DNA from: Escherichia coli
GTDB lineage: Bacteria; Pseudomonadota; Gammaproteobacteria; Enterobacterales; Enterobacteriaceae
NCBI RefSeq assembly: GCF_009931435.1
Contig: NZ_CP043414.1
Length of the DNA stretch: 64,000 nt
Strand: one strand, 5' to 3'
The first letter of the stretch is position 1, and each line of letters begins with the position of its first letter. Below, in pieces: positions 38,001 through 44,000 of the stretch. Position numbers: made by a program.

Positions 38001-41000
38001 GTGTACCTGGAGACAAACGCTCTTCATAACTTGATGCATATTGATAATGCGACTCTACCGCTGATGAAGAATAATTTGTTGAAATAGCGACGACTCTACC
38101 GCTTTGTTCTTCTGCGGTAACAAGACTATAAAGATAGTTGTTACTACCGTTAAACTTTACGCGAAAAGCGCGGGTAGCGAGAGAAATATCAGAAGCAGAA
38201 GAGTACTGGCAACTTTCTTTATAGTTTACTTCCCGGGCTAGTTTCATCAACTCACGGTTAAGCCCTGTGCTATTAAGAAGTAATAATTTACGGATATCTG
38301 CAAGTGAGGCCCCTTGCTCAATCATCAATGCTAAATGTGTTCTTCGCGGCGTTGTATTTACATGATCCAGAGTGATAAAAGTTCTGGAACAATGATGATA
38401 ATACATTCTCCTCTGGCCTTGTGCAGAATATCCATATTTTTTGAGGGACGTGCCTCCGCAAGTTGAACATTGGCAAATCAAACCTCTCCAGGAGTGATTC
38501 ACAATATTACGATAAATATTAAGCGACTGTTCAGATATCACTGGAAACAAGTAACCACATTCACGGCATAAAATATTTTTACCCTGTGCGACATAATCCT
38601 GGCTATTCAGCACCCCCAGGTTTTTACATCCTGGTGTTTTGCAACAATCAACATTTACGTTGGTAAACATATCCACTCCCTGCGAATAGCCGTATCTTGA
38701 TATTGTTCAACGCGAAAAGAACCTGATTCAATGCGTAGCACTGAATCAGGCGGGCATAGCCCTAAATGGCATACATTACATTTATTATGATTATCAGGTT
38801 AGCCCCAGGTCACTGCTTCTGGTTTATCACCCCTGGCTTTCATTAATGAATCATTATCAATATCGGCTTTATACTTTAAGAACTTACCATACATTTGTTT
38901 TTCAATGTCTGGATTTTTACCTATCTGATTAATGGTCTCAAAACGATCGGTTTTGAGGTTGTATAGGTACTTTGGCTTATTGTTACGATCGATGATCATT
39001 TTCCAGTCACCATCACGTATCGCCCATTCGTCGGTTGGATCATCCTGGAATGGCATGTCAATTCCGAAGATTAATGGCTTTTCACGTTTTAGCGCCTTGT
39101 TCTCAAGGACAGGAACCAACGATTCGCCATCAAAAGTGCGGTCCGTCGGTAATTTGAAGTTCATCATTTTCGCCAGCGTTGGCATCCAGTCCAGACCATA
39201 AACTGGCGTATCTGAAACCATTCCCTTTGGAAGATGCTTTCCGTATTTAATAATCGCCGGAACACGGATGCCGCCTTCCCAAAGGTTATCCTTGCGACCA
39301 CGTAATCCATCAGTTTTCCCTGCCAAATTCAGTTCATAAACTTTACGTGCTTCACGGGTTACTGGGCCGTTATCACTGGTAAAAATAACGATGGTGTTAT
39401 CTTCTTCACCCATCGCTTTGATTTTATCCAGTACTTTTCCAACCTGAGCATCCAGATAACTGATGTTGGCATAATATTCTCCTGTACCACGCCAGGGTTT
39501 ATCCGCCCAGTCGCCATAAAATAAATCAGGATGCTGCTTCTGATAGTCGCTCATATAATGTGAGTACATGTCGAGGTATTTTTTGGGCGAAGCCAGGGGA
39601 CTGTGCACTTCGGTAAAAGCGACATAAAGGAAGAAAGGCTTACTATCCTTTTTGTTATCCAACCAGTTAACGACTTCCGAACTGACATACTCACCACTCA
39701 TTTTATCGGCACGAGGTGTAGGTTGCCCGTTACGCAACCAACCCGTCGGATACACCATACCAAAACGGGGACGCTCCTTCGCATTATCCAGAGTAGCGTC
39801 GGTAACAAAACCCGCCGTATTAACCAGTGAGTAATCAAAGCCCATATCTTTTGCCTGAGGCTGATCGGTACGATCGCCGCCTGCATTCAGATGCAGCTTA
39901 CCCATCATTGCCGTGTCGTACCCTTGCGCTTTGAGTAGATTAGCAATCGTGAGTTCGTTACGCCCTAAGGCAACATCTTTGCCTGAAGGAATCCATGAGC
40001 GAATTCCAGTACGAAATGGCATCCGGCCGGTTAATAGCCCAGCGCGTGAAGGTGAACTTAAAGGGGCGGGGGCATAGTAGTCAGTAAATTTGACCCCTTC
40101 CTGGGCAAGCCTGTCGATATTAGGTGTTTTAACGATCTGATGACCATATGTTGCTAAATCGCCATAACCTAAATCATCCGCCATAATAATGACTAAATTA
40201 GGTTGTTTAGCCTCTGCGGCTAAGGCAGGACTAAAAGCATTCCCTGTGCAAACTGCAAGGCCGATCAAACTGGCCATTAACGTTTTCTGCATAATTATTC
40301 CCTGATAAAAAATTAGAAATCATAACCAAGCATATAAATCATTTGATCGCCAAAGCCATCGTAGCCCAGCTTATTATCGAAATAACGCCACGTCACACTG
40401 GCTTTCCAGCGAGGATAGAACTTCCAGGCAATAGTTAAACCGCCATTTAACCCGTTCCGGCCAAATTGCTGCTCCGTGTAAGCATCGTTCCTGTCCAGTT
40501 CTATTTCATTCCAGTTAGATAAAACAAATTTTTCGTCAAATAACATAAATGGCAATACTGCTGTCCAGCCAACAACATAACCATTCCAACCATTCGTTTG
40601 ACCATATTTAGCTGATACGTAGTCACCAGATTGATTATGTAATCCAATATACGGTTTAAAAAAGCCCCACTCGCCGTTCCAGCCGAGGTAACCGAATCCA
40701 TAAAACATGTCCAGATCGTCACCCCATGAGTTATCCCATTGGCCATAAATTTTGCCAAAGAATGTCATATCAGAGTCAAAGAGTCTGACATGCGTCATTG
40801 CTGAAACCGTATGATTTCTCCCTGCTACAGCATGATTGAGTACATTACTTTCATAAAATGAGTAAAATTCTGCTTCTTTAAAATTTACCCCAAAATCCGC
40901 AGTCACTTTCCATACTTCACCACGGTGAGTGTTTACAAATCCACTATTCCAGTCTGCATAACCCGCATTTATTGAACCAAAGGTTCCTTTATATTCTAAT

Positions 41001-44000
41001 GAAGAATATGCAGGAAAATGATAGATAGCTGTTATCAGGGTACACGCAATAAGAAGTCATCTTTTGGCAGACATATAATATGTTCTCCATTCATTGTTTT
41101 TATGATTCCATAGGAATTAATACATCAGATAATTCATTTTGATTAAGAACGACTCAGAAAGTATATTTAAAGGTGAATGGCAAAGCGTGATGGAGATCGC
41201 AGATTACTTTTACCCCCGGGTGTGGAGGTATCGTGTTTCAAAAAGTGTGTCGATTTTAAATATCACTCATTGATTTATAAACATTTTTCCTCACAAAAAG
41301 AAAATTCAATTCTGTACAAGAATATTTTGTATCTTCTATTACTTTCTCCAGTAATAACTCACCATTCAGGCATAACTTAAACCTCTTGTTCATAATCTCA
41401 ACTTTTGTAAATGAAAACGCACATAAGAGTTAAAATAAACAATGTACTAAAGATTAATTACGCAAAAATGCGAGGCGTCTTCAGGATTAGAATCGATAAA
41501 ACAGAATGGGTTAAAGAGAGCGATATAATAGCGGCGGGTGCTTGAGGCTGTCTGTCTCAGGCATTAGCTGAACGGCAGATAGAGAAAAGCCCCGAGTGAT
41601 ATTTTACCATCAACCCGAGGCCCCCTATATGCAGAACACATGTAGAGTGCCTCTTACTGACCGTAAGGTCAAGGAGAAGAGAGCAATGAAGCAGCATAAG
41701 GCGATGATTGTCGCCCTGATCGTCATCTGTATCACCGCCGTAGTGGCGGCGCTGGTAACGAGAAAAGACCTCTGTGAGGTTCACATCCGAACTGGCCAGA
41801 CGGAGGTTGCTGTTTTCACGGCTTACGAATCCGAGTAAGAGCAACGGCGGGGAGTGATCCCCGCCACTTTACAGGTGCTCGCATATCTTCAACGCACCCT
41901 ATTTTTACCTGGCCTGCCCACGGGCAGGCTTTTGGGGAGGTTAGCGAGTCAGGTCGTCGAAAAACTTCTTCACACCATCAAAGAAGCTCTTTGAGCGCGG
42001 GCTGTTGTGCTCGCCGGTTGGGCCACCGAAGCTTTCTTGCAGCTCTTGCAGCAGCTGTTTCTGCTTCTCGTTCAGGCCTACCGGTGTTTCGACGACAACG
42101 CGGCACAGCAAATCACCCTGTGCGCCACCGCGGACAGACTTGACGCCTTTACCGCGCATACGGAACAGCTTACCGGTCTGGGTTTCGCCAGGCACTTTCA
42201 GTTTGACGCGACCATCAAGAGTCGGTACTTCGATTTCGCCACCCAGCGCCGCCATAGCGAAGTTGATCGGGACTTCGCAATACAGGTTGTTGCCTTCACG
42301 CTCGAAAATCGGGTGCTGTTTAACCTGAACCTGAACGTACAGATCGCCTGCCGGTGCGCCATGCTCGCCCGCTTCACCTTCGCCCGCAAGACGGATGCGG
42401 TCTCCAGTGTCCACTCCTGCCGGGATTTTAACGGACAGCGTTTTGCTGCGCTCAACACGACCATGACCATGACATTTGTTGCACGGATCTTTGATCAGCG
42501 TACCGCGGCCCTGACAGTGTGGACAGGTCTGCTGTACAGCGAAGAAGCCCTGGCGCATCTGCACCTGACCAGAGCCATGACAGGTCGGACAGGTCTGCGG
42601 CTGTGTACCTGGTTTTGCACCGCTACCGTGGCAAACGTCACACTCTTCCAGAGTCGGAATGCGGATCTCTTTGGTCACGCCACGTACAGCTTCTTCGAGG
42701 GTGAGCTCCATGTTATAGCGTAAATCAGCACCGCGCGCCGCACGTTGACGACCACGTCCGCCGCCAAAAATATCGCCGAAAACGTCACCAAAAATATCGC
42801 TGAAGTCTGCGCCGCCGCCAAAACCGCCGCCGCCCATGCCGCCTTGCTCAAACGCAGCATGACCATACTGATCGTATGCCGCACGTTTTTGCGAGTCGGT
42901 CAGAACTTCATAAGCTTCCTTGATCTCTTTAAATTTCGCCTCGGCCTCTTTGTCACCCTGGTTACGGTCCGGGTGGTATTTCATGGCCAGGCGTTTGTAG
43001 GCCTTTTTGATTTCACGCTCTTCCGCTGTTTTGGAAACGCCTAAAATCTCGTAATAATCTTGCTTAGCCATCTTTTTTAAATTGCCCCTAGATGAATGCA
43101 CGGGCGGAGAGGAAATTCCCCTTCGCCCGTGTCAGTATAATTACCCGTTTATAGGGCGATTATTTTTTGTCTTTGACTTCTTCAAATTCAGCGTCGACAA
43201 CATCGTCATCTTTCGCGTTGTTTGCAGAAGCATCAGCACCGGCAGTCTGCTGCTGGGCATGTTGCTGCTGGGCGATTTCCATCAGTTTCTGGGAAACCTG
43301 TGCCAGTTCCTGCATTTTCGCTTCGATAGCGGCTTTGTCTTCACCTTTCAGAGCAGTTTCCAGTGCAGTCAGCGCAGACTCGATAGCAGTTTTGTCGTCA
43401 GCCGGCAGTTTGTCGCCTGCTTCTTCAACCTGCTTACGGGTGCTGTGCAGCAGATGGTCGCCCTGGTTGCGAGTCTGTACCAGCTCTTCAAACTTACGGT
43501 CAGCTTCGGCGTTAGCTTCTGCGTCGCGTACCATTTTCTGGATTTCATCTTCGTTCAGACCAGAAGAAGCCTTGATGGTGATCTTCTGCTCTTTACCGCT
43601 GTTTTTATCTTTCGCGGAAACGTGCAGGATACCGTCAGCATCGATATCGAAGGTAACTTCGATCTGCGGCATACCGCGCGGTGCCGGGTTGATACCATCC
43701 AGGTTGAACTGACCCAGAGATTTGTTATCAGCTGCACGTTTACGTTCACCCTGCAGCACGTGGATGGTTACCGCAGACTGGTTATCTTCAGCGGTAGAGA
43801 ACACCTGGCTGTGCTTGGTCGGGATAGTGGTGTTTTTCGCGATCAGCGTCGTCATCACACCGCCCATGGTTTCGATACCCAGAGACAGCGGGGTAACGTC
43901 CAGCAGCAGTACGTCTTTTACGTCACCAGTCAGAACACCACCCTGAACAGCAGCGCCGATTGCTACAGCTTCGTCCGGGTTAACGTCTTTACGCGGCTCT

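Follow-up and report, generated by a model that had tools for sequence, protein, structure and literature searches.

A 64-kb stretch of the Escherichia coli genome (64,000 nucleotides of contig NZ_CP043414.1, RefSeq assembly GCF_009931435.1; hereafter the window) contains an accessory block of three minus-strand genes, which lie between hokC and nhaA and encode a Tsx-like outer membrane channel, a periplasmic S1 (formylglycine-type) sulfatase and a putatively transposase-derived protein, orf416. With a probability of about 0.6, this block is a cut-down Escherichia form of a sulfatase operon of the Enterobacteriaceae, whose enzyme would act on a small sulfate ester and would be matured in trans by AslB or YdeM. 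Examination of the orthologue loci, together with tblastn over 42 genome loci, has shown that other genera carry a conserved four-gene operon, in which the Tsx-like channel and the sulfatase are followed by a radical S-adenosylmethionine (radical-SAM)/SPASM protein and then by orf416. The radical-SAM protein is the anaerobic sulfatase maturase (anSME) described by TIGR03942, the Atlantibacter copy scoring 482 bits against a cutoff of 349. In Phytobacter, Kosakonia, the Enterobacteriaceae metagenome-assembled genome (MAG) UBA3516 and Citrobacter, the operon is bordered by dnaJ and nhaA; a single flank is visible at each of the Citrobacter loci L054 and L017. Since the same position is occupied in several genera, this is the ancestral site of the block, which has been lost from K-12-type E. 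coli, and the view that it was inserted between nhaA and hokC, taken in an earlier reading of the sequence alone (the sequence-only reading), is rejected.

The anSME gene is missing from all 10 Escherichia copies examined, namely those of the window, six E. coli, Escherichia sp. MOD1-EC7003, E. whittamii and E. albertii. In agreement with the earlier claim that the block encodes no maturase, tblastn with two anSME queries found no radical-SAM maturase in the block or in the whole 64-kb window. The position taken by anSME in other genera is here a spacer of 128 bp between the sulfatase gene and orf416 (38671–38798, minus strand). Spacer bases 25–84 match the sulfatase–anSME intergenic region of Citrobacter and Salmonella loci, and bases 111–125 match the 15 nucleotides directly preceding orf416 in those loci. 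Since both intergenic ends are recognizable, the Escherichia spacer is the scar of a clean deletion, in the ancestor of the genus, of the maturase open reading frame (ORF) of about 1.2 kb. A tblastn search detected no anSME coding remnant in the spacers of Escherichia, Klebsiella, Kluyvera and Phytobacter massiliensis; the sole remnant is a 14-residue N-terminal piece at one Salmonella enterica locus. A terminator-like hairpin with a 14-bp stem lies within the spacer of the window at 38721–38751. This hairpin is kept in loci that still have the downstream anSME; it is therefore an internal operon element, for instance a partial terminator or an mRNA stabiliser, and not just a terminator made by the deletion.

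Codon 79 of the sulfatase gene (40056–40058, minus strand), which specifies the formylglycine position, is AGT (Ser) in 10 of the 10 Escherichia copies, and it is TGT or TGC (Cys) in every orthologue outside Escherichia, those of other Enterobacteriaceae genera as well as those of Vibrio and Enterovibrio. Ser79 is thus the derived, Escherichia-only state of a Cys-type enzyme, produced by one T-to-A change from TGT to AGT. Cys is kept also in the anSME-less orthologues of Klebsiella, Kluyvera, P. massiliensis and Salmonella. In Klebsiella oxytoca, Kluyvera intermedia, K. spallanzanii and P. massiliensis, all with Cys and with no anSME between the sulfatase gene and orf416, the spacers are about 170–330 bp long, and these differing lengths suggest that the maturase gene was deleted independently in the Klebsiella, Kluyvera and P. 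massiliensis lineages.

The sulfatase gene itself (38799–40292, minus strand) is intact in the window and encodes a protein of 497 amino acids. Its start lies 20 bp past the stop of the channel gene on the same strand. The protein matches Pfam Sulfatase (PF00884) with an E-value of 4.7e-59 over residues 31–378, covering model positions 1–300 of 301, so the sulfatase call of the sequence-only reading stands when checked against family models. The N-terminus is a hydrophobic leader, MQKTLMASLIGLAVCTGNAFSPALA, which is followed by AE and has its cleavage site between ALA and AE. Since no twin-arginine motif was found in this leader, the protein is predicted to be exported to the periplasm by the Sec pathway. 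In the active-site motif, PLSSPSRAGLLTGR, Ser occupies the formylglycine position, and the signature S79-S-P-S-R83-AGLLTGR fits the pattern (C/S)-x-P-x-R-xxx-L-T-G-R. Leader, motif and AGT codon together bear out the earlier description of a signal-peptide sulfatase with a Ser-type motif. Residues D39, D40, R83, K132, H134, H230, D307, N308 and K334 are invariant across 14 aligned orthologues, and the catalytic and metal-binding residues are taken by us to be equivalent to those of P. aeruginosa AtsA, from our own reading of the motif spacing. The window sulfatase is about 97% identical to the E. coli 'putative arylsulfatase' of PDB entry 3ED4 (1114 bits over residues 6–497), an unpublished structure of NYSGXRC (PMC9063841). 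It is essentially the same protein, with the SSPSR motif in both and allelic differences of a few percent between them.

Since no maturase is linked to the sulfatase gene, the activity of the enzyme should depend on a maturase encoded elsewhere. The sequence-only reading had named enzymes of the AslB/YdeM type for this role, and the presence of anSME at the sulfatase–orf416 junction of the orthologous operons supports such a dependence. It had been expected that the sulfatases of E. coli itself would be Cys-type, an expectation rejected by the K-12 sequences: YdeN (VSGPSR) and AslA (SSSPTR), whose genes adjoin anSME genes, both have Ser at the formylglycine position. AslB and YdeM share 44–49% identity with the anSMEs encoded in the orthologous operons, and they are the only plausible candidates for a maturase acting on the block sulfatase in trans. 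The aslA–aslB and ydeN–ydeM pairs have the organism, the enzyme family and the Ser-type motif in common with the block sulfatase, but they keep their own adjoining anSME and the block sulfatase has none. AslA and YdeN are not close to the block sulfatase; 3ED4 is the only Escherichia chain apparent among the 60 PDB matches listed, and the 'ydeN' chain 7OZA matches at an E-value of only 1.6e-34. In the proposed mechanism, Ser79 of the precursor would be oxidised to formylglycine in the cytoplasm, prior to Sec export, by AslB or YdeM. A small sulfate ester would cross the outer membrane through the Tsx-like channel and would then be hydrolysed by the mature sulfatase in the periplasm.

One of the closest known systems is atsBA of Klebsiella pneumoniae. 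Like the window sulfatase, AtsA is a periplasmic Sec-exported S1 enzyme with Ser at the formylglycine position, and its adjacent maturase, AtsB, parallels the anSME beside the sulfatase in the orthologous operons of other genera. In contrast to atsBA, the Escherichia block has had its maturase gene deleted, and its Ser is derived from Cys. The gene order also differs, being maturase–sulfatase in atsBA and channel–sulfatase–anSME–orf416 in the operon described here, which adds the Tsx-like channel and the transposase-derived gene.

The channel belongs to the Tsx/OmpK family. A Pfam scan of its translation gave Channel_Tsx (PF03502) only, with an E-value of 3.7e-13 over model positions 87–244 of 244; the RefSeq name of the intact orthologues is 'outer membrane protein OmpK', and the NCBIfam model PRK11528 scores 119 bits, under its cutoff of 282. 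Since a phmmer search against the PDB chain sequences gave no match at E-values up to 1, an AlphaFold2 (AF2) model was compared with known structures by Foldseek. The model of the intact orthologue of E. coli AR_0086 has a signal helix and 12 strands, with a predicted local distance difference test (pLDDT) score of 74.6. Its top PDB match is Tsx (1TLW; E-value of 5.8e-7, template modelling (TM) score of 0.65), and NanC and KdgM come next (TM scores of 0.55–0.65 normalised to the target). The sequence-only reading had described a KdgM/OmpL-like small porin. A small 12-stranded channel does adjoin the sulfatase, but its family is Tsx/OmpK by both Pfam and Foldseek; the KdgM/OmpL family (PF06178) was rejected because the KdgM model was absent from the Pfam matches at every threshold reported. 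KdgM, NanC and OmpL are, like the window channel, small 12-stranded substrate-specific barrels, and they are fold-level analogues from a different sequence family. Tsx (1TLW) and Vibrio OmpK have both the Channel_Tsx match and, as modelled by AF2, a monomeric barrel of 12 strands in common with the window channel. Tsx differs in that the two proteins are only 13% identical in the structural alignment, the Pfam match being limited to the C-terminal 60%, and in that the window channel is linked to a sulfatase and not to nucleoside metabolism; moreover, the window copy is disrupted.

This disruption is a premature TGA at codon 6 (41057–41059) of the channel gene (40313–41074, minus strand), which would have 253 codons if intact. 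The codon is CGA (Arg) in other E. coli, and two E. coli orthologues with CGA at this position have an intact gene of 253 codons. The next canonical in-frame start after the TGA is a GTG at 40906, past the signal peptide. The uninterrupted ORF in the window is therefore 40313–40906 only, without a signal peptide, and does not run to 41074 as had been assumed. In the window, the channel gene is accordingly a pseudogene, or nearly so. The 71-mer around the TGA is identical in none of the 932 matching complete E. coli genomes (the best match being 98.6%), indicating that the TGA is private to the window sequence. Either a mutation of recent date or an error in sequencing could have produced it. 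The codon could also be read through in part; a UGA with C as its next base terminates weakly in E. coli.

The third gene, orf416 (37426–38670, minus strand), encodes 414 amino acids from the ATG at 38670, or 416 from 38676. Since a Pfam scan gave nothing significant, its family assignment rests on the fold, which consists of two Zn ribbons, a helix-turn-helix (HTH) and an RNase H-like domain; by this fold, orf416 would be a transposase-derived (domesticated) protein. Against the NCBIfam model of the IS1/IS1595 zinc ribbon, the window protein scores 18.2 bits, below the cutoff of 28, and the Atlantibacter orthologue scores 38.7 bits. Homologues form 59 clusters only, and every organism-named cluster comes from Enterobacteriaceae. 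The gene is single-copy and is always the last of the operon, directly downstream of the sulfatase or anSME gene in every locus examined. Mobile-element behaviour, that is, multiple copies at variable sites, was therefore rejected. Unlike DDE transposases of the IS1/IS1595 type, orf416 is single-copy and fixed across genera and three chromosomal sites, is under purifying selection, and has no conserved acidic residue at the expected site of the first catalytic Asp, on the first beta strand. Judged by its fold, it is most likely a DNA-binding regulator. In the window, Tyr stands in place of a Cys that is nearly invariant in the second CxxC zinc ribbon (C93Y; TAT at 38398–38400, minus strand, where other E. 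coli have TGT or TGC), and the window is the sole deviant at this residue among 29 aligned family members.

The neighbours of the operon bear on its substrate. In Salmonella (arizonae, salamae) and several Citrobacter, a larger island abuts nhaA, with the gene order aryl-sulfate sulfotransferase, UshA/SoxB-like phosphoesterase, opposite-strand channel gene, sulfatase, anSME, orf416, second sulfotransferase and nhaA. The island phosphoesterase, a UshA-like protein of 520 amino acids, resembles the thiosulfohydrolase SoxB (E-value of 2.5e-46, below the cutoff) and is paired with the divergent channel gene. The operon is found at other genome sites, with an adjoining aryl-sulfate sulfotransferase gene, in Franconibacter, Buttiauxella and some metagenomic contigs; aryl-sulfate sulfotransferase (AssT; PF05935) neighbours occur in three different arrangements. 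About 30 loci were examined, and in none of them does a gene for a glycoside hydrolase, lyase or sugar kinase accompany the operon. Since the operon repeatedly adjoins aryl-sulfate sulfotransferase genes and has no linked glycoside hydrolase, the substrate would more likely be a phenolic (aryl) sulfate than a glycan.

The enzyme sequence gives no substrate of its own. NCBIfam sulfatase equivalogs (arylsulfatase, choline sulfatase and others) were rejected, with scores far under every cutoff, such as 185 against 481 bits for arylsulfatase, and the protein is about equally distant (E-values of about 1e-50) from steryl sulfatase, arylsulfatase A, GalNAc-6-sulfatases and carrageenan sulfatases. 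The sequence-only reading had proposed uptake and desulfation of a sulfated glycan, and the channel and the sulfatase could in principle import and desulfate a sulfated glycan or sugar, such as host mucin or glycosaminoglycan fragments. This alternative would account for the C-terminal match to SGSH_C (N-sulphoglucosamine sulphohydrolase; E-value of 2.9e-8), for the many carbohydrate sulfatases (carrageenan, GalNAc-6-sulfate, mucin) among the nearest solved relatives, and for the MFS sugar-type transporter that adjoins the operon in Atlantibacter. However, that adjacency is limited to Atlantibacter, the transporter being 6 kb away in P. massiliensis, and steryl sulfatase and arylsulfatase A score equal to the carbohydrate enzymes. 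The channel is Tsx-like, its solved relative being nucleoside-specific, and is not an oligosaccharide porin. With sulfotransferases as the recurrent neighbours, and no glycoside hydrolase or sugar-catabolic gene beside the operon, a glycan substrate is rather unlikely, and the proposal of an aryl-sulfate system matured in trans is preferred.

All three remaining genes have been under purifying selection across the genus since the anSME loss and the Ser change. Within Escherichia, the ratio of nonsynonymous to synonymous divergence (dN/dS, Nei–Gojobori) of the sulfatase gene is 0.02–0.06, with dS up to 0.96. The ratio for Cys-type orthologues accompanied by a maturase gene is 0.037–0.046. The channel gene gives about 0.04 between deep Escherichia alleles, and orf416 gives 0.10–0.15 in comparisons with dS above 0.05. 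The sulfatase gene is present in 1276 of 5426 complete E. coli genomes, always on the chromosome, and the whole block in 1271. Its alleles are deeply divergent and mosaic, with 89–98% nucleotide identity varying per gene, and synonymous divergence between E. coli alleles in the block reaches 0.3–0.9. When the window is compared with two E. coli strains (L001 and L002, respectively), the identity is 99.9% and 92.5% for nhaA, 95.6% and 83.7% for orf416, 94.4% and 91.4% for the sulfatase gene, and 98.2% and 99.3% for the channel gene. These gene-by-gene shifts in identity, together with the high synonymous divergence, show that old alleles have been combined by recombination into a mosaic block.

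The same data argue against the possibility that the block is a decaying, non-functional relic, heading for loss as in K-12 and inactivated by Ser79. The block is absent from 4150 of the 5426 complete genomes, and damage is seen in single lineages besides the premature stop of the channel gene and the zinc-ligand loss of orf416 in the window: orf416 is frameshifted in strain 24A16CRGN010, IS1 has removed the channel gene and most of the sulfatase gene in strain SL124, the channel gene of the E. albertii type strain is found as two separate overlapping tblastn pieces, suggesting a frameshift, and Salmonella enterica copies retain the sulfatase alone. On the other hand, dN/dS of the sulfatase is as low as that of the Cys-type enzymes with anSME, the channel and orf416 are constrained too, and AGT is common to all Escherichia species sampled, so that the protein has been preserved through the history of the genus after the change. 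A relic is therefore quite improbable. Decay is real in single lineages, probably including that of the window, and the locus overall is not decaying. In the window genome, the system is probably impaired by the TGA of the channel gene and the lost zinc-ligand Cys of orf416, with the sulfatase intact.

Several points weigh against an aryl-sulfate system matured in trans. The link of AslB or YdeM to this sulfatase is non-experimental, and under aerobic conditions laboratory E. coli reportedly matures sulfatases of the Cys type and not those of the Ser type. The near-equal distance of the enzyme from varied sulfatases leaves the sequence neutral on the substrate; the aryl-sulfate assignment is made by association, and AssT genes do not adjoin the operon in Escherichia, Klebsiella or Phytobacter. 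The regulatory role of orf416 is read from its fold. The TGA in the channel gene could be an artefact of sequencing or could be partly read through. Finally, a choline sulfatase left unmodified retains multi-turnover activity (PMC6189696).

This last observation also favours a different explanation, in which the Escherichia enzyme has become independent of formylglycine, with Ser79 serving as a direct nucleophile, as in the alkaline phosphatase relatives, or with the protein acting on another ester or in binding only. Such independence would account for the loss of both the Cys and the maturase, which coincide in the same genus, and it would fit the strong purifying selection on the sulfatase and a weak match to Pfam Phosphodiest, a family of the same alkaline phosphatase superfamily. 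However, the motif xPSRxxxLTGR beyond position 79 and the catalytic residues are strictly conserved in both the Ser and the Cys forms, as recognition by a maturase requires, and Escherichia has two anSME genes with Ser-type partners. Moreover, Ser at the formylglycine position of human arylsulfatases is said to trap the enzyme as a dead-end sulfo-enzyme. Formylglycine independence is thus unlikely, and maturation in trans by AslB or YdeM remains the favoured explanation. Put more broadly, Escherichia would have made a single-base Cys-to-Ser change, deleted the maturase gene and yet retained the sulfatase, which implies either that AslB or YdeM acts in trans or that an S1 sulfatase works without formylglycine; this general proposition is put forward tentatively, at somewhat less than even odds.

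The limits of the block were set by blastn against MG1655 14000–19800, the window being in the opposite orientation to the K-12 map. Window 35000–37414 aligns to K-12 19663–17249 and window 41456–41861 to K-12 17136–16728, leaving 4041 bp (37415–41455, minus strand) with no K-12 counterpart. MG1655 carries about 112 unrelated bp in their place, and comparison of this filler with the block showed no homology. The earlier statement that K-12 lacks the block is thus correct. The two ORFs that it had placed at 38799–41074 are indeed there on the minus strand, but orf416 had been missed, and the block is accordingly longer. IS186 of K-12, which had been put between nhaA and hokC, sits between dnaJ and hokC, outside the hokC–nhaA interval. 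An AT-rich region upstream of the channel gene (41075–41455, minus strand; GC content of 0.32–0.36) is the presumed promoter or regulatory region of the operon; a promoter scan of it gave weak sigma-70-like matches only, not exceeding those of shuffled sequence.

The block is flanked on one side by nhaA (36008–37174) and nhaR (35043–35966), both on the minus strand, and on the other by the plus-strand toxin gene mokC/hokC (41596–41838), which is named MokC at orthologous E. coli loci and is 98.5% identical to K-12 16728–17136, followed by dnaJ (41941–43101) and dnaK (43160–45076) on the minus strand. In the dnaK–dnaJ region (41941–45076), just 11 out of 5424 complete E. coli genomes reach an identity of at least 99% to the window, the remainder having 95–99%, and the best whole-block match among complete E. 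coli genomes is 95.8%. The source is therefore an Escherichia lineage with sparse coverage among the complete E. coli genomes of RefSeq. The interval from rpsT to nhaR contains a low-GC island (29494–35005; about 33–34% GC at its right end), which encodes a 490-residue protein with pentapeptide-like repeats, possibly an EspX-type effector, and a chaperone–usher fimbrial operon that appears degraded, its chaperone being split into two overlapping ORFs (31794–32111 and 32066–32476) and its usher into three fragments (32489–32836, 32805–33080 and 33077–34033). At 11713–17784, carB (14563–17784) is directly followed by kefF- and kefC-sized ORFs (13568–14098 and 11713–13671). The genes caiF-caiTABCDE-fixABCX-yaaU, which lie between carB and the kef genes in K-12, are seemingly absent from the window, as judged by ORF sizes only.

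The locus is already annotated and structurally solved, and it belongs to a known kind of accessory locus. In S. Typhimurium, the nhaA-adjacent orthologue, STM0038, has been described as a 'putative arylsulfatase' (bioRxiv 10.1101/804674). A literature search found no functional study of the locus, mentions being limited to STM0038 and the unpublished 3ED4 structure. For the window, the message is modest: the block is an accessory locus with existing annotation, about one in four complete E. coli genomes has it, and in this genome its channel gene is broken. By means of sulfatases, gut bacteria can exploit sulfate esters from the host and the diet, and these enzymes depend wholly on a maturase for their activity. 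The locus is a natural experiment on sulfatase maturation in E. coli, with Cys and a maturase in other genera, Ser and no maturase in Escherichia, and conservation in both. The genus-wide loss of the maturase together with a Cys-to-Ser change under purifying selection is the one feature that merits experiment, and the existing crystal structure 3ED4 makes the question of maturation directly testable. If the proposed reading is true, the domesticated relative of DDE transposases would be a new kind of sulfatase-operon component, either a regulator or an accessory factor, and the orphan-looking AslB or YdeM would gain a natural substrate in trans, or else an S1 sulfatase would be physiological without formylglycine.

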